Shown: positions 1,054 through 12,574 of the stretch, in pieces
How the letters are laid out: every line of letters starts with the position of its first letter
Position numbering within the stretch: the first letter of the stretch is position 1
Virus record (IMG/VR): IMGVR_UViG_2548876701_000024
DNA from: a virus
Taxonomy: Duplodnaviria; Heunggongvirae; Uroviricota; Caudoviricetes
Strand: one strand, 5' to 3'
DNA length: 36,646 nt
The notes under the pieces: model-generated
Seen by the model: the letters and a program-made list of their open reading frames with translations, nothing else
The model's database searches: none
Told to the model about the DNA's origin: nothing
Position numbers and translations under genes: made by a program

Positions 1054-1241
1054 AAAAAATGCCCTCCAGTAGAGAGCATTTTTACTGTATGTATAACCAG
1101 TGTCAATGTATGAAATCCTACGACCATACATCTCACTGAAGCCATAATGAAGTTGGCTATTCTTTTTGCTATGTGAGCATGTAACTTTTGCGGTTAACCT
1201 GCGGCTCATTTTTATTTTAGACGCAGATATAAAAACAAAAG

Positions 1242-1433
1242 TTATCGTGAGTTTTTAGTACAGATTTTTTTTGATTTACTAATAGTTCCATCATTGCAAA
1301 CGAATTTGCCATCTGAGGTACAGTGAGAAACACCTCCCTTTTTCCCTGAGCAGGGATAATTTCTAGCATAGGTAGTTAGTGGGTTTAATAACAAAGAACA
1401 TGACAAAATCACAAAAAATACCTTACCAAGCAT
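1242..1433 (-). CDS. Small exported or lipoprotein-like Cys-rich protein (63 aa), probable moron
   Basis: ATG with GGGAGG Shine-Dalgarno; N-terminal hydrophobic signal ([12 protein letters not shown]) followed by a 4-Cys mature region; AT-rich; sits between cI and int on the lysogenic strand. Confidence 0.5.
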
Positions 1434-1448
1434 AGTTTCCTCCCGGTA

Positions 1449-2018
1449 CTATTTAACATACTTGACTGTTAAACTTATAATTTTACCAATTATTTCAATG
1501 TCTTCTATCTTGCATTCGAAGGCTCTGTTTCCACCCTCGACGAAGATTCTTCCACCGGGTAAACGAGTAATGTCACGGATCGTTATTTCGCCATCAATAC
1601 TTATTACCCATTTACCATCACGTATATCATCAAATTCTTTATCACAAATAAATTCAGAATTGTTATCTGTGATGACAAAAGGTTTTTTAAACGTAGAGGG
1701 TAGAAATCCCTTATCAAAAATATAAAAACCGTCTTTCTGCAATGCTCCATCAGACAATAAATATTTTTCTACTTCTATAGTATTTGTATTTGCTGATGCT
1801 TGCTTTGAACCATGCCCTGTTGTTAGCCAATTAAGCGAGGTGCCCGTTTCAAGGGCGCACTGGATTACCCAATCTGCTGGAAAAATATCACGCATATAGC
1901 GCGTTGCCATGGTGCTCTTAGAAACACCTAAATGATCACAGAGAGCCTGACGAGTACCGAACCCATATGCTTCAACTAAACGTTCTATGGCTTTCTTACC
2001 GCCGCTATTGAAATCCAC
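1449..2018 (-). CDS. cI: Phage 186 CI-like immunity repressor
   Basis: HTH-like N-terminal region; lysogenic-strand position upstream of int; start placed at in-frame GTG (2016..2018) after GGAGGA, giving 189 aa; the longest ORF would run to 2105 but would cover the predicted pR promoter. Confidence 0.7.
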   Translation of the reverse strand: MDFNSGGKKAIERLVEAYGFGTRQALCDHLGVSKSTMATRYMRDIFPADWVIQCALETGTSLNWLTTGHGSKQASANTNTIEVEKYLLSDGALQKDGFYIFDKGFLPSTFKKPFVITDNNSEFICDKEFDDIRDGKWVISIDGEITIRDITRLPGGRIFVEGGNRAFECKIEDIEIIGKIISLTVKYVK

Positions 2019-2045
2019 AAGTCCTCCAAAGAAATCCAAAATTCG

Positions 2046-2074
2046 TTGACAGATTCCAAAAGCGATCTTAAAGT
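2046..2074 (+). promoter_or_regulatory. Candidate rightward lytic promoter pR (TTGACA-17-TAAAGT)
   Basis: Consensus -35 hexamer and 17-bp spacer read directly from sequence, upstream of apl; position fits the 186-type switch. Confidence 0.35.
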
Positions 2075-2163
2075 TGAACCAGAAGTGTTCTTTTGGAGCC
2101 TTCACTACTAATCACGACAAACAACGGCTCGCCACAAGCCATATCTAGAAGGAATGTTGCCTT

Positions 2164-4531: not shown

Positions 4532-5385
4532 GCACCATCCTGAAATGGGCGGGTAATAAAACCACCATTATGTCCGAACTGAAAAAATACCTTCCTGCTG
4601 GCACGCGACTGGTTGAACCTTTCGCGGGTTCTTGTGCTGTGATGATGGAGACGGATTACCCCAGCTATCTGGTTGCGGATATTAATCCTGATTTAATCAA
4701 CCTCTATAAAAAGGTTGCTGCTGATTGTGAGGCGTTTATATCTCGTGCCAGAGCTTTATTTGAGGAAGCAAACAGAGAGGTGGCTTATTACAACATAAGG
4801 CAGGAGTTTAATTACTCCACTGAAATTACTGATTTCATGAAAGCGGTATATTTTTTGTACCTCAATCGTCATGGTTACCGTGGGCTATGTCGCTATAACA
4901 AGAGCGGGTATTTCAACATTCCCTACGGTAATTATAAAAATCCGTATTTCCCTGAAAAAGAAATTCGCGCATTTGCAGAGAAAGCCCAGCGGGCAACGTT
5001 TATCTGCGCCAGCTTTGATGAAACGCTGGCGATGTTGAAGGCGGGGGATGTGGTGTATTGCGATCCGCCTTATGACGGTACGTTTTCCGGCTATCACACT
5101 GATGGCTTCACTGAAGATGACCAGTATCACCTGGCATCCGTTCTTGAACATCGATCATCTGAAGGTCATCCGGTCATTGTTTCTAACAGTGACACATCCC
5201 TGATCCGTTCGCTGTATCGCAATTTTACTCACCACTACATCAAGGCAAAACGCAGCATCGGCGTGGCAGCTGGTGAGAGTAAATCTGCAACAGAAATCAT
5301 CGCTGTTTCCGGGCCGCGCTGCTGGGTAGGATTTGAACCTTCGCGTGGCGTGGATTGTTCCGTCGTGTACGGAGTGCGTGCATGA
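4528..5385 (+). CDS. dam: DNA adenine methyltransferase (Dam-like, N6-adenine MTase)
   Basis: DPPY catalytic motif ([10 protein letters not shown]) and N-terminal AdoMet-binding region (LKWAGNK...EPFAGS). Confidence 0.85.
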
Positions 5386-7796
5386 GCCATGCTGATATGA
5401 ACAACTGCAGCGGCTTTAACGAGGTCGCCGCAGCATTCTCATGGAACAGCCCGAAAAAGGCCATTAACCCTTATCTGGACCCGGCGGAAGTTGCGCCGGT
5501 TTCTGCGCTTTCAAACCTGATCACTCTGTACGCTGCCGATAACGAGCAGGAACAACTGCGCCGCGAGGCACTGAGTGATCAGGTCTGGGAGCGTTATTTC
5601 TTTAATGAATCCCGTGATCCTGTCCAGCGCGAAATGGAGCAGGATAAGCTAATTAGCCGGGCAAAGCTGGCGCATGAGCAGCAGCGTTTTAATCCAGACA
5701 TGGCCATTCTGGCGGACGTCAACGCCCAGCCTTCCCATATCAGCAAGCCGCTGATGCAACGTATTAAATACTTCAGCAGCCTGGGCAGGCCAAAGGCTTA
5801 TTCCCGCTATTTGCGTGAGACGATTAAGCCATGCTTGGAACGACTGGAGCATGTACGCGACAGTCAGCTATCCACTTCTTTTCGCTTTATGGCAAGCCAT
5901 GAAGGGCTGGACGGCCTGCTGATCCTGCCTGAAATGAGTCAGGATCAGGTGAAACGCCTGTCCACCTTGGTAGCTGCGCATATGAGCATGTGCCTTGATA
6001 CAGCTTGTGGCGATTTGTATGCCACCGATGATGTTACGCCAGAAGAAATCCGCAAGACATGGGAAAAGGTGGCAGCGGAAACCCTGCGTCTGGATGTTAT
6101 CCCGCCTGCGTTTGAGCAACTCCGTCGGAAAAGAAACCGCCGTAAACCCGTGCCTTATGAACTCATTCCGGGTTCGCTGGCGCGTATGTTATGCGCCGAC
6201 TGGTGGTATCGGAAATTATGGAAGATGCGTTGCGAATGGCGGGAAGAGCAGTTGCGTGCTGTTTGCCTGGTCAGCAAAAAAGCATCTCCCTATGTCAGCT
6301 ATGAAGCCGTGATGCATAAACGTGAGCAGCGCCGTAAGTCGCTGGAGTTTTTCCGTTCTCATGAACTGGTGAACGAAGACGGCGACACGCTGGATATGGA
6401 AGACGTGGTAAACGCCAGCAGCAGCAACCCTGCGCATCGCCGCAATGAGATGATGGCCTGTGTTAAAGGTCTGGAGCTTATCGCGGAAATGCGTGGTGAC
6501 TGCGCCGTTTTCTACACCATCACCTGTCCGTCACGTTTCCATTCCACGCTAAATAACGGCAGGCCCAACCCGACCTGGACAAATGCGACGGTAAGACAAA
6601 GCAGTGATTATCTGGTCGGTATGTTTGCTGCATTTCGTAAGGCGATGCACAAAGCCGGATTACGCTGGTATGGCGTGCGGGTGGCTGAGCCGCATCATGA
6701 CGGTACAGTTCACTGGCACCTGTTGTGTTTTATGCGCAAAAAAGATCGCCGCGCCATTACTGCTTTGTTGCGTAAGTTTGCCATTCGTGAAGACCGCGAG
6801 GAGCTGGGTAATAACACGGAACCACGCTTTAAGTCTGAGCTGATAAACCCGCGCAAAGGTACGCCAACAAGCTACATCGCGAAATACATCAGTAAGAACA
6901 TTGACGGGCGTGGTCTGGCTGGCGAGATCAGCAAGGAAACGGGTAAATCCCTGCGTGATAACGCCGAATACGTTAATGCCTGGGCGTCTCTGCATCGTGT
7001 TCAGCAATTCCGCTTCTTTGGCATTCCGGGGCGTCAGGCTTACCGTGAACTGCGATTGCTGGCTGGTCAGGCGGCAAGGCAACAGGGGGACAAAAAAGCA
7101 GGTGCGCCGGTACTGGATAACCCGCGCCTTGATGCCATCCTGGCTGCCGCTGATGCTGGCTGTTTTGCCACCTACATCATGAAGCAGGGCGGCGTACTGG
7201 TTCCCCGCAAATATCACCTCATCAGAACCGCTTATGAAATCAACGAAGAGCCGACCGCCTATGGCGATCACGGTATTCGTGTTTATGGCATCTGGTCACC
7301 CATTGCAGAGGGCAAGATCTGCACTCATGCGGTGAAGTGGAAAATGGTTCGTAAGGCCGTTGACATTCAGGAGGCGGCAGCCGACCAGGGCGCTTGCGCC
7401 CCTTGGACTCGTGGCAATAACTGTCCCCTTGCTGAAAATTTGTACCAACAAGGGAAAGACAAATCAGCTGATGGGGATACCAGAACGGATATCACCCGTA
7501 TGGATGACAAGGAGTTGCACGATTACCTGCACAGTATGAACAAAAAAGAGCGCCGGGAACTGGCTGTAAGGTTACGCCTGGTGAAACCGAAACGGCGTAG
7601 AGACTACAAACAGCGAATTACAGACCATCAACGACAGCAGCTCGTCTATGAACTGAAGTCCAGAGGATTTGATGGCAGCGAGAAAGAGGTCGATTTACTC
7701 CTTCGCGGCGGCAGCATTCCGTCAGGAGCAGGCCTGCGTATCTTCTATCGGAACCAGCGTTTGCAGGAAGATGATAAGTGGCGGAACCTGTATTAA
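5382..7796 (+). CDS. A: Replication initiation endonuclease gpA (rolling-circle, P2 A family)
   Basis: ~800-aa protein in the canonical position after the early operon; start ATG overlaps dam stop (ATGA); fits P2 gpA in size and placement. Confidence 0.85.
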
Positions 7797-7949: not shown

Positions 7950-8138
7950 ATGCAGGACTATTTTTTGGAGTCTTTGAAGCTCCAGCGCATTGATTTTTTT
8001 CTTAAGCTTGTAGCGGCTAGTGAGTGTAGTGATGAAGAGAAGGGGCTGGCCCTGCAGTGGGTTTCTGAACTAACAGATGAACTCATAGCAAAAATCAGAA
8101 GCCACGAATACAACCGCTCAATGGATGTCATCAGCTGA
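7950..8138 (+). CDS. Small protein, possible N-terminal part of Tum-like antirepressor
   Basis: ATG with AGGAGG Shine-Dalgarno just downstream of the LexA box; the longer listed ORF (from 7848) would span the LexA box and promoter. Confidence 0.5.
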   Translation: MQDYFLESLKLQRIDFFLKLVAASECSDEEKGLALQWVSELTDELIAKIRSHEYNRSMDVIS

Positions 8139-8148
8139 GGGGACTTTT

Positions 8149-8382
8149 ATGCGCATTGAAATAATGATCGATAAAGAGCAGAAGATTAGCCAGTCTACCT
8201 TGGACGCCCTTGAATCCGAGCTTTACCGCAATCTGCGCCCCCTGTATCCCAAAACGGTAATTCGTATCCGTAAAGGTAGCTCTAACGGTGTGGAACTAAC
8301 CGGATTGCAACTGGACGAAGAAAGAAAACAAGTGATGAAAATTATGCAGAAGGTGTGGGAAGACGACAGCTGGCTGCATTAA
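8149..8382 (+). CDS. DinI-family protein (Tum C-terminal-like, SOS-inducible)
   Basis: Begins MRIEIMIDK and ends ...KVWEDDSWLH, paralleling E. coli DinI (MRIEVTIAK...ETWESADDWF); under the LexA box. Confidence 0.75.
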   Translation: MRIEIMIDKEQKISQSTLDALESELYRNLRPLYPKTVIRIRKGSSNGVELTGLQLDEERKQVMKIMQKVWEDDSWLH

Positions 8383-8652: not shown

Positions 8653-8868
8653 ATGTCAAGCATCGCCGCATTTAGCCTGGGTAACCCAGTTGAACGTCTG
8701 GCAAGGGTTCTTAAAGAGAACCAGGACAAACTCAATCTTAGTAAAGATGGTTTTGTGTCCGTAGACTTGTCTAACAAAAGAGCAATGGATGCCATCAAGG
8801 CACAGATGGATAAGCTTGAAGGCATCAAAACGAGCACTGTAAAAGAGAAAACTAATAGAACCAGATAA
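8653..8868 (+). CDS. Hypothetical small hydrophilic protein (71 aa), first gene of a two-gene cargo operon
   Basis: ATG with AAGGGGGAG Shine-Dalgarno; stop overlaps start of next gene (TAATG). Confidence 0.55.
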   Translation: MSSIAAFSLGNPVERLARVLKENQDKLNLSKDGFVSVDLSNKRAMDAIKAQMDKLEGIKTSTVKEKTNRTR

Positions 8869-9710
8869 TGGCAACATTACTTTTAGCAGTGATTTTGGTT
8901 AGTGGTTTTATTTATGTAAACCTATCACTTTCAACAAGATACCGATATAAGCGTTCCAACGGCTGGGACGCTTATTTTTTTGTGGCTGCCTGGGGTATCG
9001 TTTTTTTTCTCCTTGGCGGTTTTTTCACCTTTATTTTGAACGTCAGCGGAGGGTTTCGTTGGCTGGCTAATGCCTTGAATCTAACACCTGACAGTTTTAA
9101 TGGCATGTTGTCTTCATCGAAAGACAAACTTCAAAGAATAAATGAAATCAAACAGATAGCATGGGTTATGATTTCAATTGTCCTCGCTGCGATTTCAGGT
9201 TTTGGAAATAAGTTACGCACATCACGTGGAGATCGTCGCTGGGATGCCTTAGCTAAAGCTGTGGGTAATAACGCTTTCGAATCATTACTCATGGAAGCGT
9301 CCGCAAGACAGTTTCCGATCATAGCAACTCTGTCGTCTCGCAAAATCTATGTTGGTCTTGTTACTTGTCCGGCGTTAGAAAACGGGCTTTCAGAACACCT
9401 TGAACTTCTCCCGATGTTAAGCGGATATCGGGATAAAGATGATCTAACGATTAGTATCACGACTAACTATCACCAACATTATCTTGATAGTGGTGTGATA
9501 AGTGGAATGTCTCGGCTTAATATCGAAGATTTCCGTGTGCTCATACCAAAAGATGAGGTTGAAACAATTTCGTTTTTTGATACTGAGACATATAACAAAT
9601 TTAAAGAAAATGAAGCCAGGGATAGAAAGAGCTGTCGAAAGATTGGTAGTAAAAGTGCATCTTCGCGCAGCAAGCGTGCAGCAGATGCTGAGTCAAATGA
9701 TCGTGCATGA
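8868..9710 (+). CDS. Hypothetical membrane protein (280 aa), three predicted N-terminal TM helices plus soluble C-terminal domain
   Basis: Hydrophobic stretches at about residues 3-20, 35-57 and 96-112; translationally coupled to the upstream ORF; in the gpA-to-cos variable region. Confidence 0.65.
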   Translation: MATLLLAVILVSGFIYVNLSLSTRYRYKRSNGWDAYFFVAAWGIVFFLLGGFFTFILNVSGGFRWLANALNLTPDSFNGMLSSSKDKLQRINEIKQIAWVMISIVLAAISGFGNKLRTSRGDRRWDALAKAVGNNAFESLLMEASARQFPIIATLSSRKIYVGLVTCPALENGLSEHLELLPMLSGYRDKDDLTISITTNYHQHYLDSGVISGMSRLNIEDFRVLIPKDEVETISFFDTETYNKFKENEARDRKSCRKIGSKSASSRSKRAADAESNDRA

Positions 9711-9758
9711 CTATGCTGCATGAGATCGCATGATCGTTTGAGGATCGTTTTTGCTAAG

Positions 9759-9783
9759 GCCCGCCAGAACTGGCGGGCTTTTG
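9759..9783 (+). terminator. Rho-independent terminator
   Basis: GCCCGCCA/TGGCGGGC 8-bp GC stem, 4-nt loop, followed by TTTT. Confidence 0.6.
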
Positions 9784-9827
9784 CGTAGATCATGCACCTG
9801 CATGAAAACTACTACATAAAGTGGGCA

Positions 9828-9846
9828 GGCGTGGCGGGGATACGAG
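9828..9846. other. cos-like cohesive-end site (GGCGTGGCGGGGATACGAG)
   Basis: Close match to the P2 cohesive-end sequence as I recall it (GGCGAGGCGGGGAAAGCAC), with a following GCGCGCTG at the same offset as in P2. Confidence 0.5.
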
Positions 9847-10050
9847 CGCGCGCTGCTATATTGCGTAGAGCCTTTACGTAAGCATTAGTAATGTTGACTC
9901 AGATAGAAAACGAATCGAACATTGAACGCTATTAAATGAATAAATGTGTGAAAGAAGAAACTACTATCAATTGCGTTCTCCTGTTTGAAAAGGTTAAAAT
10001 TTAAAAAATTAAAATTTCATCCTGACAGATTAATTTAAAAGGGCATTCAT

Positions 10051-11346
10051 ATGAATGAAGAATTTCAAAAAACGATTAACTCATTATATAGCTTAAAAAA
10101 AGCTGTTGAAAAAGTGGCTACTGACGAAACTAACCTTTCGGATGTGAAAGGTGTTAAAGCTCCTGCTTTATATCCTGTTGATTTTCTAGATATGATTGGT
10201 TTTATAATAAGAAAAATAGAAAAATATGGTGAAGTGGAATTAACGGATGATGAGATTTCTGAACTGAGTTTTTTACCGATTAGAATTGATAATATTAAAG
10301 AAAATATAGTTCCACATCTCTTTGGAAATAACTCGTCTGATGCTATTTCATCATTTGTTGAAACTATTGCGTTTATTACTCAGTATTTAGATGACATTTT
10401 CTCTTTAGAACGACTGGATAATGCTAATCTTCTGCCGAGAAATATGACAAGAAAAATAAAAAGCATGGAGGCTAGGTTAAATAAAGCAGCCCCTGATATA
10501 GAATCATTGGAAAATAAGATAAATAAAATAAATGATGCTCATGTTGCGGCTGAAAACATTCCTATCGATTTGGAGGAATTACGCTCTTATAATAAGGAAG
10601 CTATGGAGTTAAAAGAAAAGATTAATAAATCAATGTTTAATCTTAGTGTCTTAGAAGAAAAAGGACGTGATATTTTAGATAAAATGACACAACAAAATGT
10701 CGAAGCAGCAAAATATCTCGAAATGTGTGAGCAGGCTATTAGAGCATCGACATCTAAAGGTTTAGCCGGTGCTTTTGAAATCAAGGCTAATAAATTAAAT
10801 AATAGTATCCAACTATGGGTTTTGGGATTGGCAAGTGCACTGGCGACGGGGGGATACGTGGGTTTTGAAAGGCTCAAGGTTTTATCTGATGTGCTAAACA
10901 ATGCAAATCCAAATGCAGTAGTTATTGTTACTCAGTTACTTCTTTCAGTGTTCAGTATAGGAGCTCCGTTATGGTTTGCATGGCTCTCTACAAAACAAAT
11001 AAATCAAAGATTTAAATTGGCAGAGGATTATGCTTTTAAGGCTTCAGTAGCGAAGGCTTACGAAGGCTATCGAAATGAAGCAAGTAAGGTATCTAATGGA
11101 GAATTTGAAAGGCGTTTATTTGATTCGGCATTGAGTCGTCTCGAAGAAGCACCTTTGCGCTTTGTGAAGGATGATGACCATGCAACCCCTTGGAATGAGT
11201 TGTTAAATTCGAAAGCATTCAATAAGTTCCTTGACGCTTCTGTTGAAAATGTGAATTTTGTTAAAGGGATTATTAGCAAGAAAACAGGTGGGGCGAGAAT
11301 GGCTAGTAATGATTCGGCTATTATTCCAGAAAAAAAAGTTGAATGA
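10051..11346 (+). CDS. Hypothetical 431-aa protein; coiled-coil-rich N-terminal region, two predicted TM helices (about residues 253-272 and 288-311), C-terminal soluble domain
   Basis: Long ORF in a strongly AT-rich segment unlike the phage backbone; hydrophobic helices evident in the translation; between cos and portal gene Q. Confidence 0.7.
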   Translation: MNEEFQKTINSLYSLKKAVEKVATDETNLSDVKGVKAPALYPVDFLDMIGFIIRKIEKYGEVELTDDEISELSFLPIRIDNIKENIVPHLFGNNSSDAISSFVETIAFITQYLDDIFSLERLDNANLLPRNMTRKIKSMEARLNKAAPDIESLENKINKINDAHVAAENIPIDLEELRSYNKEAMELKEKINKSMFNLSVLEEKGRDILDKMTQQNVEAAKYLEMCEQAIRASTSKGLAGAFEIKANKLNNSIQLWVLGLASALATGGYVGFERLKVLSDVLNNANPNAVVIVTQLLLSVFSIGAPLWFAWLSTKQINQRFKLAEDYAFKASVAKAYEGYRNEASKVSNGEFERRLFDSALSRLEEAPLRFVKDDDHATPWNELLNSKAFNKFLDASVENVNFVKGIISKKTGGARMASNDSAIIPEKKVE

Positions 11347-11503
11347 CAGAAGGATAATAATTAAGGGATGTCAGTCAACATGGTAATTTCTTGGTGTTGA
11401 TTGTTTTATTTATCAAAAACATTTTAAGTTAGTCTGATCTTCGCGTTCGGTAGGATCAGACTATTAGATTAACGATATGATTTCATTGATTACGAATGGT
11501 TAA

Positions 11504-12574
11504 TTAAGTTGTAGGGATAGTAATCGAAAGATTACTATCTTCAATACCTAGTTTATAAGGCTCAAACATAATTACTTCTTCTCCAAGCCACTCGTTAAGC
11601 TCTGTCATTCGTTTTTGTAGCGGGGTCAACTCATTGCGCACAAAGACTTTACTAGCTTTACCTGCATCTCCAAAACCGCCGATGTTCTGGGGAATTATCC
11701 CCATCATTTGCGGCGGCACACGGTGTGCCGCCATCATGTCGTCCCGGCTCACGTTCTTGATATTCAGAAACTCATCCTTCGCCGCGACTTCTGACAATGG
11801 GATGATCTGAAGCCCGTCTTTTTTACCGTTAGGCGAGTACATAAACAGGTTACGGAAGTTACCAGGACCTTTGGCACTTTTCATCGCGTTGCGGAGGTTG
11901 TTCACATCCTCCTGATTCTGCGCGGCATCGGTCATGTACATGATGAAGCCTGCATGGCTGCCGTTGATGTAATACTTACGGCGGAACAGTGTGGCGGACT
12001 CGTTGAGCAGGGCTGACGGAATGGCAGAAAGATAACCGGGCAGGCCGTAGATCTCCTGGTTGATGTCCGGTTCCATCAGATGAAAAATGCTGCCTTTCGT
12101 GAACTGATACGGCTGCGTAGTCATGCCGTATTGCACAAACCAGTAGGTATCCAGGTCTAATCCGCGTCGGGTGTATTTTGCCAGCGCAGGCTCAAGAGCG
12201 ATGACCTCTCCGAAGCGGTTCGTGCGTTTTTCCAGGTAGGCGTTACCAAAAACCAGATAGTCCTGCACAAAACGCGAAAAAGCCTGCTGGCTGAGCAGCG
12301 GGTGAGGGATGTAGGTGCTGGTCAGAATGTTGCATTTCACTGCGATCGGTGAGCTGTGGTGTACGGCAGCGCGGAATGTTCGCGCCAGTCCGTCAAAACT
12401 TACGGGAGGCTCATACCAGCGATCCGTCTGTACGCATTCCACATAGTCCAGCAGTTCGCGGCGGTCCAGTACAGGAATGGGATCGCCAAAGCTGAATGCT
12501 TCGGCTGAAGTCTGGCTTTTATGCTGGGTCTGGTTCTGTGACGCAGCGCGGTTCTTCTTACTCTTTCCCATCAA
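11504..12574 (-). CDS. Q: Portal protein gpQ
   Basis: Synteny (divergent from O, downstream of P) and size. Confidence 0.88.
   Translation of the reverse strand: MMGKSKKNRAASQNQTQHKSQTSAEAFSFGDPIPVLDRRELLDYVECVQTDRWYEPPVSFDGLARTFRAAVHHSSPIAVKCNILTSTYIPHPLLSQQAFSRFVQDYLVFGNAYLEKRTNRFGEVIALEPALAKYTRRGLDLDTYWFVQYGMTTQPYQFTKGSIFHLMEPDINQEIYGLPGYLSAIPSALLNESATLFRRKYYINGSHAGFIMYMTDAAQNQEDVNNLRNAMKSAKGPGNFRNLFMYSPNGKKDGLQIIPLSEVAAKDEFLNIKNVSRDDMMAAHRVPPQMMGIIPQNIGGFGDAGKASKVFVRNELTPLQKRMTELNEWLGEEVIMFEPYKLGIEDSNLSITIPTT

Follow-up and report, generated by a model that had tools for sequence, protein, structure and literature searches.

The window analyzed here, a stretch of 36,646 nucleotides from a 186/P2-like Escherichia coli prophage, carries a self-contained accessory cassette with a gene for a 431-amino-acid protein in the cos-adjacent gpA-to-Q hotspot. 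Overall, the gene is best explained as a candidate single-protein anti-phage sensor-effector at the inner membrane, a reading in which our confidence is evenly balanced. We regard the gene as accessory and mobile because it is absent from P2 and 186, because nucleotide homology is lost at 9856 and about 11554, because its G+C content contrasts with that of the surrounding backbone, and because another prophage, whose immunity region differs, has the same cassette.

The initial annotation had described a two-transmembrane (two-TM) protein of 431 residues encoded between cos and the portal gene, and its coordinates, strand, and length were all correct (Table 1). The open reading frame starts with ATG and comprises 431 codons. 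Given the base composition of the gene, 431 codons in a row would lack a stop with a probability of approximately 8e-17, and the longest run in the other five frames of the gene is 114 codons at most. The G+C content of the gene is 34.6% (25.7% at third codon positions), compared to 50.7% for the window, 56.9% for the terminase gene, and approximately 57% for the backbone. Windows of 500 nt over the gene gave G+C fractions of 0.30, 0.36, and 0.36, and the interval 9856-11503 as a whole is 33.7% G+C. The contrast with the backbone that had been noticed by eye is therefore real (34.6% versus approximately 57%), although the earlier estimate of roughly 30% was slightly low. We conclude that the gene is real and horizontally acquired.

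Table 1. Features of the locus and of the encoded protein, with positions in the window
Feature	Position	Strand	Evidence or remark
Replication gene gpA	5355-7796		PF05840
Rho-independent-type terminator hairpin GGCCCGCCAG/CUGGCGGGC, then UUUU	9756..9783	+	RNA folding
cos-type cohesive-end site, P2/186 family, GGCGTGGCGGGGATACGAG	9828..9846	+	Sole match in window; aligns with annotated cosL of P2 and 186
Variable cassette	9856..11553	.	Nucleotide similarity to related P2-like phages interrupted
Possible own promoter, TTGAAA, 19 nt, TAAAAT	9985..10015	+	Putative; nonconsensus spacer; direct reading of sequence
Shine-Dalgarno-like AAGGG	10039..10043	+	7 nt 5' of ATG; direct reading of sequence
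Coding sequence, 431-aa protein	10051..11346	+	PHROG 34659; Rousset et al. 2022 Table S5B system #102
N-terminal helical-bundle domain, aa 1-125	10051..10425	+	pLDDT about 86-95; poorly conserved
Long helical, coiled-coil-like region, aa 126-224	10426..10722	+	
Conserved core module, aa 225-395	10723..11235	+	Invariant columns in family alignments
Hydrophobic helix 1, aa 252-272	10804..10866	+	W256, L260, L264, G271 invariant; G259, G267 in at least 90% of sequences
Hydrophobic helix 2, aa 289-312	10915..10986	+	P306, W308, W311 invariant
12-bp hairpin between two convergent stop codons	11430..11463	.	Candidate bidirectional terminator; where P2/186 have tQ/tW
Portal gene (P2 Q/186 W homologue)	11504..12574	-	PF04860; convergent with 431-aa gene; right border of slot

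The cassette has well-defined borders. Its left end lies beside cos, for which the pattern GGCGTGGCGGGGA at 9828-9840 is unique in the window (0.05 matches expected by chance). Megablast similarity to related phages ends at 9853-9856 and returns at 11554-11612, within the 3'-terminal part of the portal gene. A consensus terminator scan detected none upstream or downstream of the gene; the hairpins were instead found through folding. The RNA of 9750-9795 folds with -23.4 kcal/mol (z = -4.2), and none of 200 shuffled sequences folded as well. This hairpin, which a simple terminator scan missed because its T-run is short, ends the upstream plus-strand genes immediately 5' of cos. The 431-aa gene therefore probably needs its own promoter. 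A consensus scan found no plus-strand promoter 5' of the start codon, and no Rfam RNA family was detected within 9600-11600. The hairpin on the portal side folds with -18.1 kcal/mol on the plus strand (z = -2.7) and -14.0 kcal/mol on the minus strand (z = -3.3); the tQ/tW region of P2 and 186 gave no alignment to it.

The gpA-to-gpQ interval adjoining cos is a defined anti-phage hotspot (Rousset et al. 2022, Cell Host Microbe; PMC9122126), and the gene lies within it, between gpA and the portal gene Q. The distance from cos to the portal stop codon is 1657 nt in this window versus only 167-176 nt in P2 and 186, as expected for the accessory cargo of a variable locus that the initial annotation had proposed. 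To place the slot among its relatives, we scanned viral contigs for the cos pattern and obtained 90 P2-like contigs having both cos and portal. The interval was between 131 nt and 4 kb long, exceeding 340 nt in 52 of the 90 contigs. Placement on the Q side of cos, which had been called unusual, is thus commonplace. The gene is missing from P2, 186, and 38/90 contigs. In the other P2-like contigs, the interval contains 89 open reading frames in 77 clusters, among them retron reverse transcriptases, Septu PtuA, AbiLi (AbiL), OLD- and AriA-like ATPases, PD-T4-4, AIPR, GmrSD, and HEPN domains. Close relatives hold a TIR protein or another, unrelated gene in the same interval.

In P2, old and tin lie near cos on the gpA side, and fun(Z) lies between G and FI. 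These are likewise AT-rich accessory genes in P2-type slots; the 431-aa gene differs from old and tin in being on the portal side of cos, which is equally common. Old is an ATPase-TOPRIM nuclease. The 431-aa protein has no sequence similarity to the products of old, tin, and fun(Z) and no match to the PADLOC Old model, and it is an all-helical membrane protein.

The protein has been recorded before, so the novelty implied by the earlier description does not hold. It appears in the Rousset et al. 2022 catalogue (PMC9122126) as system #102 of Table S5B, described as "2 TM" with no domain and 32 occurrences among 18,150 E. coli loci. The catalogued sequence matches ours over all of the approximately 400 residues given. 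Protein, locus definition, and description are therefore the same; no function was given, and the system lay outside the set that was cloned and tested (PMC9122126). What the present analysis adds is how the whole family is distributed, which core is conserved, and how the gene moves between hotspots. Signature peptides of the family were absent from the supplements of Vassallo 2022, DefensePredictor, and the 2026 P2/P4 preprint. When 5,426 complete E. coli genomes were searched by Megablast for the gene, there was no match.

We next consider the relatives. The protein matches phrog_34659 over its full length (E = 1.8e-187; residues 1-423 versus profile positions 1-423 of 433), and its C-terminal core also matches the sister phrog_30912 (E = 2.3e-12). 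Both PHROGs are sequence clusters that carry no functional annotation. Pfam, NCBIfam, and PADLOC scans gave no significant match, with only coiled-coil noise for the protein and four distant homologues, and PADLOC-DB v2.0.0 returned 0 families at E <= 1 for the 431-aa protein. The earlier remark that no motif of a named defense family could be recognized is in line with these scans. A precomputed PF28231 tag on one homologue was treated as spurious, being absent from our local Pfam scan and from 119 other members. A profile search of PDB sequences yielded nothing below E = 0.067. Homology to a known defense protein or pore-former was thus undetectable by Pfam, PADLOC, NCBIfam, PDB sequences, and Foldseek.

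The family consists of proteins of approximately 430 aa with a patchy distribution over several bacterial phyla (hosts include Proteobacteria, Bacteroidota, Leptospira, Verrucomicrobia, and Planctomycetes), and a search with the core profile retrieved 1825 clusters (approximately 1,800 at 50% identity). Among the best 150 of these 1825 clusters, we found no fusions to other domains; all had the same ~430-aa layout or were shorter, the shorter sequences probably being truncated. Relatives occupy several kinds of mobile element. A 65%-identical relative, P0006, sits in the Z/fun slot (tail-fiber assembly to sheath) of E. coli P2-like prophages, and others lie in the slot between the replication gene and ogr or portal in Enterobacter, Kosakonia, Klebsiella, and Citrobacter, the Citrobacter copy adjoining a KAP NTPase. 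A Yersinia relative is carried by a P4-like element, with an OLD-family nuclease and a RelE/MqsA pair as its neighbors, a relative in a Providencia temperate phage lies between early-region genes and terminase, and a Stenotrophomonas relative belongs to a mobilizable island with integrase, MobA, and TraD. Known defense systems in the same slot and relatives in other defense hotspots make a defense role plausible, as first suspected. From location and distribution, we lean slightly toward a defense function. In the 2026 P2/P4 preprint, six out of eight random unknown P4-hotspot loci were active.

Several observations speak instead for cargo unrelated to defense: a membrane protein that serves the physiology of the lysogen (envelope, stress, or membrane remodeling), or an anti-defense or competition factor of the lytic cycle. 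We consider this unlikely, yet it is the alternative that survives best. Conversion genes likewise occur in the accessory slots of prophages, and in this very window an acyltransferase gene (Acyl_transf_3) occupies the Z/fun slot, an example of nondefense cargo in a P2 hotspot. According to the 2026 preprint, just 15-32% of unknown P2 proteins are predicted to be antiviral. Association with defense is strong where phage and satellite hotspots are concerned. Taking 80 loci at the species level, however, we counted 146 immediate neighbors, and few of them are defense-like (Old twice, NERD+UvrD twice, methyltransferase twice, and helicases), the others including integrases, resolvases, and housekeeping genes. 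Some homologues stand in ordinary chromosomal surroundings, adjoining recBCD (Luteimonas) or nrdAB (Pseudomonas) with no visible mobile or defense context. The undetectable homology to known defense proteins or pore-formers, the scarcity of defense-like neighbors, the housekeeping contexts, the lack of a consensus promoter, the low global confidence of the structural model, and the nondefense cargo of P2 hotspots all count against the sensor-effector reading. The top Foldseek matches are membrane-remodeling hairpins of the Vipp1/PspA/ESCRT-III type, at a nonsignificant level (E = 0.31; TM-score, 0.23/0.43); neither Foldseek nor the PDB-sequence profile search showed significant similarity to these proteins.

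The architecture of the protein bears on how it might act. Hydropathy reveals two hydrophobic segments at about aa 252-272 and 289-312, as previously described, and both fall within helices of the AlphaFold model and are conserved family-wide. The model is all-helical, with an N-terminal bundle (aa 1-125) and helices at 130-168, 170-282, and 289-346; its global confidence is low (pTM 0.36), so the packing of the helices is uncertain. The N-terminal region had been called coiled-coil-like, a description only partly accurate: it is apt for the long helical stretch, whereas aa 1-125 are modeled as a helical bundle. This N-terminal domain has a mean pairwise identity of 33% within the family, and in comparison with the E. 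coli paralogue-type P0006 it is 39% identical versus 84% for the core. The core consists, in order, of a pre-membrane helix (TSKGLAGAF), TM1, a short loop, TM2, and a near-invariant stretch containing APLWFAWL-TKQI-QRF-LAEDYAFKASVAKAYEGYR-EA, LF-SAL-RLEEAPLR, and SPW-EL. Pairwise identity in the core is 62% before the TM segments, 84% for residues 313-346, and 65% for residues 347-395.

By hydropathy, model, and conservation, the protein has the two-TM hairpin typical of SLATT/2TM effectors. Two-TM effectors of abortive infection include SLATT-type proteins, the 2TM proteins of CBASS, retron, and Thoeris-like systems, lambda RexB, and the 2TM+1TM+TIR system of phage AC1. They share with the 431-aa protein a hydrophobic hairpin with cytoplasmic flanks, hotspot location, and plausible membrane disruption. 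SLATT/2TM effectors rely on a separate sensor or signal-producing gene. Unlike them, the present family has its own 220-aa N-terminal region and is without a conserved partner: no neighboring family occurs in more than 10 of the 80 loci, and the commonest (10/80) is integrase-like, which agrees with the initial proposal of a single-gene system. SLATT or related Pfam families were not found at E <= 1 in the 431-aa protein or four distant homologues. Other structural comparators are helical-hairpin membrane proteins and the four-helix bundles of the plant NLR CC domain or MLKL type.

The bulk of the protein is predicted to lie in the cytoplasm. The variable N-terminal bundle and long helical stalk (aa 1-224) would lead into the conserved module (aa 225-395), a predicted two-helix membrane hairpin with near-invariant helices on both cytoplasmic flanks. 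In the sensor-effector reading, the N-terminal half may be the sensor or partner-binding part, recognizing either a product of the phage or a change brought about by infection. In response, the hairpin module, probably oligomeric, would impair the inner membrane through leak or depolarization, and the infected cell would thereby be stopped from producing phage (abortive infection). This division of labor and the membrane permeabilization, both suggested by the conservation pattern, are possible but doubtful. As a wider and tentative proposal, somewhat short of an even call, the proteins may form a new family, extending across phyla, of immune sensors that each consist of a single protein and have a permanent anchor in the inner membrane. 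The near-invariant juxtamembrane module (TSKGLAGAF, TM hairpin, LAEDYAFKASVAKAYEGY) would be an undescribed membrane-disrupting or signaling effector, and phage specificity would depend on the rapidly evolving N-terminal bundle. The one-gene cassette would circulate among the cos-to-Q and Z/fun slots of P2, slots in P4-like elements, and those in other temperate phages and islands.

Superinfection exclusion at the inner membrane is a further alternative, in which the protein would keep incoming phages from delivering their DNA or from completing early steps, and the cell would not be killed. T4 Imm, P22 SieA, and HK97 gp15 are small membrane proteins that act in this way; the 431-aa protein, a prophage-encoded predicted inner-membrane protein with two TM helices, is far larger than the known entry blockers. 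The same hotspots house the exclusion genes old, tin, and fun, and the hotspot catalogue of Rousset et al. includes 2-TM proteins such as SieB, yet no match to SieB or another exclusion protein was found in Pfam or PHROG. The predicted periplasmic part is only a loop of approximately 16 residues with 38% pairwise identity, the conserved parts being predicted to be cytoplasmic, and the family spans phyla with very different envelopes and phages. Exclusion is therefore distinctly unlikely.

Broken copies of the gene are frequent. More than 300 contigs, Shigella sonnei among them, have the P0006-type gene in two halves of 216 aa and 174 aa; E. coli also has split copies, and frameshifted copies were found in Acinetobacter and Chelativorans. 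Such copies would fit a costly gene, for instance a selfish membrane toxin of the addiction type that stabilizes its element or is merely tolerated, with no anti-phage role. Against this stand the absence of a conserved small partner or antitoxin gene next to it and the strong conservation of length and core sequence across phyla, which points to selection on the intact protein; we judge a selfish toxin improbable. A virion, packaging, or lysis component of the phage lineage, which the position directly beside cos, portal, and terminase genes might suggest, is effectively refuted by the absence of the gene from P2, 186, and many P2-like contigs with unrelated cargo in close relatives, by homologues outside phages, by the weakness of virion-type matches (PHROG tail/head families, E = 0.012-0.4, versus 1.8e-187 for phrog_34659), and by the lysis cassette elsewhere in the prophage.

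Whichever reading of the gene is correct, it is not a new sighting, given the 2022 hotspot catalogue. Should it fail to protect, it would caution against taking hotspot cargo for defense by default. If the single-protein sensor-effector does protect, it would represent a new stand-alone defense family of approximately 1,800 clusters at 50% identity in several phyla, with an effector module that matches nothing known, and a clean case of one cassette moving among helper-phage, satellite, and island hotspots. Its variable N-terminal half and almost invariant membrane module would then make it tractable for studying how sensing is coupled to killing.

The window is a 186/P2-like prophage that carries an integrase, 186-type CI, CII (CP76), and portal, terminase, capsid, lysis and tail genes. 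The cos-type site GGCGTGGCGGGGA, the sole one in the window (0.05 expected by chance), lines up with cosL as annotated in P2 and 186, and the portal gene lies beyond the target gene; the target is therefore located between cos and portal, as proposed in the initial annotation. The predicted 431-aa open reading frame was also confirmed. Given the base composition of the gene, in which a stop codon is expected every ~12 codons, the chance of such an open length is ~8e-17, and the other frames of the interval are open for at most 114 codons. The gene is indeed AT rich, with a G+C content of 34.6% (25.7% at third codon positions) compared to 50.7% in the window and 56.9% in the adjoining terminase gene. 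Kyte-Doolittle averaging found two hydrophobic segments (aa 252 to 272 and 289 to 312), in agreement with the two transmembrane (TM) helices suggested. Directly after the replication gene gpA lies a DinI-family gene, an arrangement seen in many P2-like phages; this family recurs as an "accessory" member among the hotspot arrangements of Table S5A in Rousset et al. 2022 (PMC9122126).

Features of the target locus and of two other variable segments in the window
Feature	Position	Strand	Remarks
Replication protein gpA	5355-7796		
DinI-family gene	8125-8382	+	PF06183, E = 8e-23
71-aa protein	within 8653-9710	+	phrog_9843; overlaps start of 280-aa gene
280-aa protein	within 8653-9710	+	phrog_3630; several N-terminal hydrophobic segments
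Terminator-type hairpin, strong	9756-9783		5' of cos; -23.4 kcal/mol, z = -4.2
cos-type site	9828-9840		
TTGAAA, 19 nt, TAAAAT	9985-10015		non-consensus; sole promoter-like element identifiable for target
AAGGG	7 nt 5' of target ATG		
Target gene	10051-11346	+	ATG start
12-bp hairpin	11430-11463		between two convergent stop codons; in place of tQ/tW terminator of P2/186
Portal gene	11504-12574	minus	far side of target from cos
Tail-fibre assembly gene	24324-24920		border of Z/fun slot
Acyl_transf_3 protein, 377 aa	25189-26322	minus	opposite strand, within Z/fun-slot island
Sheath gene	26645-27817		border of Z/fun slot

Nucleotide similarity to P2-like phages of Klebsiella, Escherichia, Salmonella and Yersinia ends at 9853 to 9856, just beyond cos, and similarity to related P2-like phages restarts at 11554 to 11612, within the last portal codons. 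Together with the spacing between cos and the stop codon of the portal gene (1,657 nt in the window versus 167 nt in P2 and 176 nt in 186), these limits define a single-gene cassette of ~1.7 kb. Since similarity restarts 50 to 108 nt into the portal gene (3' end, 11504 to 11612), the last 17 to 36 portal codons are part of the variable segment; as placed by these alignments, the putative recombination junction is inside the portal coding sequence. The hairpin before cos implies that the early operon does not read through into the target. No Rfam family matched across the cassette interval. The same cassette was also found in another E. coli prophage (GCA_961210495.1), which is 98% identical to the window from gpA onward (from 4517) and has a different immunity region, with a longer CI-type repressor and an extra 314-aa gene compared to window positions 1111 to 2113. 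The cassette is thus common to mosaic prophages.

The placement of the target on the portal (Q) side of cos had been regarded as unusual. We searched IMG/VR for the cos core and, in at least 90 contigs that also had the portal gene (not dereplicated), determined how far the portal stop lies from cos. The result refuted this view: among the matches listed, this distance did not exceed 217 nt in 38 of 90 contigs, resembling P2 and 186, and was 347 to 4,084 nt in 52. The target itself was present in one of these 52 long-interval contigs. At least 89 open reading frames in the long intervals formed 77 clusters, almost all in the same orientation as the target. Among them are retron-type reverse transcriptases (RT-Toprim, RT-protease and RT-TIR), Septu PtuA, AbiLi, OLD- and AriA-like ATPases, PD-T4-4, and AIPR, GmrSD, HEPN, DndB, KAP NTPase and RelA/SpoT domains. 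These defence genes mark the portal side of cos as a main address for defence cargo, which strengthens the location argument for the target and removes its supposed oddity.

The gpA-to-gpQ hotspot beside cos was defined by Rousset et al. 2022 (PMC9122126), and the protein is already system #102 in their Table S5B (one protein without a Pfam domain, 32 occurrences, "2 TM"), so the sighting is not new. The #102 sequence matches the target protein over all residues shown in that table. Signature peptides of the target are absent from Table S2 of the same paper (protein sequences of cloned systems), indicating that it was not among the systems cloned there, and from the supplements of Vassallo et al. 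2022, DefensePredictor and a 2026 P2/P4 preprint. Searches of Pfam, NCBIfam and PADLOC v2 gave only coiled-coil noise under every curated threshold, bearing out the claim that no named defence-family motif is present. The target is an uncharacterised, already catalogued hotspot cargo of a known class, outside the named defence families.

The protein matches PHROG 34659 (function not annotated) over its full length (E = 1.8e-187) and, by its C-terminal half, the sister PHROG 30912. At least 1,494 relatives were found among the candidates scored in a large protein database, nearly all of 420 to 440 aa and annotated as hypothetical. Mean pairwise identity in an alignment of 72 family members was 33% in the N-terminal 125 aa, 37% in the helical stalk (aa 126 to 224), 62% in the pre-membrane helix (TSKGLAGAF), 52% in TM1, 38% in the 16-aa loop from TM1 to TM2, 58% in TM2, 84% in aa 313 to 346 (TKQI-QRF-LAEDYAFKASVAKAYEGYR-EA), 65% in aa 347 to 395 and 19% in the last 35 aa. 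An E. coli relative (P0006; 65% identical overall) shares 39% identity in the N-terminal domain and 84% in the core. Searching 1.84 billion representatives with a core-only profile gave 1,825 clusters at 50% identity (480 with E <= 1e-30); in the best 150 of these, the core lies at ~aa 222 to 397 of a ~430-aa protein, or else the protein is shorter and probably truncated, which indicates a fixed architecture.

The AlphaFold model is all helical (mean pLDDT, 74; pTM, 0.36), with a confident N-terminal bundle (aa 1 to 125), helices at 130 to 168 and at 170 to 282, the latter continuing straight into TM1, a helix at 289 to 346 that connects TM2 with the invariant segment, and a disordered tail. 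Foldseek against the PDB found no specific relative (best E, 0.31; Vipp1/PspA). Because the protein has no signal peptide and basic residues are more numerous beyond TM2 than within the inter-TM loop, we infer that both large parts are cytoplasmic and that the short variable loop alone reaches the periplasm. Conserved glycines in TM1 suggest helix packing or oligomerisation.

The locations of relatives are the most informative evidence on the target. The clade of P0006, very common in E. coli, occupies the Z/fun slot of P2-like prophages, between the tail-fibre assembly and sheath genes. Homologues from Enterobacter, Kosakonia, Klebsiella and Citrobacter (the last adjoining a KAP NTPase) lie in the replication gene-to-ogr/portal slot of other P2-like prophages, and a Yersinia homologue lies in a P4-like element (AlpA, D5-type primase) beside an OLD-family nuclease and a RelE/MqsA pair. 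The single match in the phage collection, in a Providencia temperate phage, has the terminase gene on one side and early-region genes, including a DNA adenine methyltransferase, on the other. Further copies are in a Stenotrophomonas island with integrase, MobA and TraD and on the chromosomes of Pseudomonas (between nrdAB and IS66) and Luteimonas. In Luteimonas granuli the homologue is immediately 3' of recB-recC-recD, with mobile-element genes absent from view; this neighbourhood is odd for hotspot cargo and could be coincidence.

When each species was represented by a single genome, 150 genomes were found to encode relatives; they belong to Alpha-, Beta- and Gammaproteobacteria, Bacteroidota, Leptospira, Verrucomicrobia, Planctomycetes and Nitrospinota. 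No neighbour family was conserved in more than 10 of the 80 loci kept, the commonest being integrase-like. The 146 immediate neighbours include integrases (4), resolvases (3), ImpB (2), Old-family nucleases (2), NERD+UvrD (2), methyltransferases (2), helicases and ordinary housekeeping enzymes. Scattered loci without a recurrent neighbour point to a self-contained unit that moves horizontally and is patchily distributed. Two homologues from metagenome-assembled genomes, "Collinsella sp." (65% identical; flanked by a Caudovirales tail-fibre assembly gene) and "Bacillota bacterium" (52%), look like misbinned enterobacterial prophage contigs rather than genuine Gram-positive copies.

Two other segments of the window hold accessory genes. 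On the gpA side of cos, the two genes without assigned function at 8653 to 9710 gave nothing significant in Pfam or PADLOC, and their peptides are absent from the examined part of the Rousset et al. 2022 tables (PMC9122126). At the nucleotide level this block is 82% identical to Klebsiella phage ST15-OXA48phi14.1, and it may represent a second cargo of the hotspot. A second low-G+C island (35 to 39%; ~24.9 to 26.6 kb) lies in the Z/fun slot, the slot that the 65%-identical relative occupies in other E. coli P2-like prophages; its Acyl_transf_3 protein is probably a surface-polysaccharide acyltransferase (lysogenic conversion).

The target is mobile accessory cargo of defence hotspots and consists of one gene, whose helical product contains a hydrophobic hairpin. 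Its hotspot location and the relatives in defence slots uphold the proposal of a candidate defence gene, stripped of its unusual placement and novelty, and we lean towards an anti-phage gene. As base rates from the literature, six of eight randomly picked unknown loci in the P4 hotspot were active, and 15 to 32% of unknown P2 proteins were predicted to be antiviral in 2026. A role outside defence, in conversion, membrane physiology or counter-defence, seems unlikely. More tentatively, the variable N-terminal bundle and stalk would detect, in the cytoplasm, a phage product or a state brought on by infection, and the conserved hairpin module, flanked on both sides by invariant cytoplasmic segments, would then damage the inner membrane and so abort infection. 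The combination of a variable putative sensor with a conserved putative effector, the lack of a partner gene and the occurrence in phyla with different envelopes favour a trigger in the cytoplasm and a generic target in the membrane. The same three points speak against blockage of a specific receptor or entry channel, and non-abortive superinfection exclusion is doubtful.

Split or truncated copies are common: 216- and 174-aa halves of the P0006-type gene occur in more than 300 contigs, including Shigella sonnei, E. coli has neighbouring pieces of 162 and 281 aa, and Acinetobacter and Chelativorans copies are frameshifted. They may reflect a costly gene or else lineage-wide gene decay, and they are the sole hint of a selfish membrane toxin, which we consider improbable. 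A core phage function can be dismissed for a gene so irregularly present. As an anti-phage candidate, the target is good and would be cheap to test, and its conserved membrane module is striking; its presence in the hotspot would not surprise a specialist.
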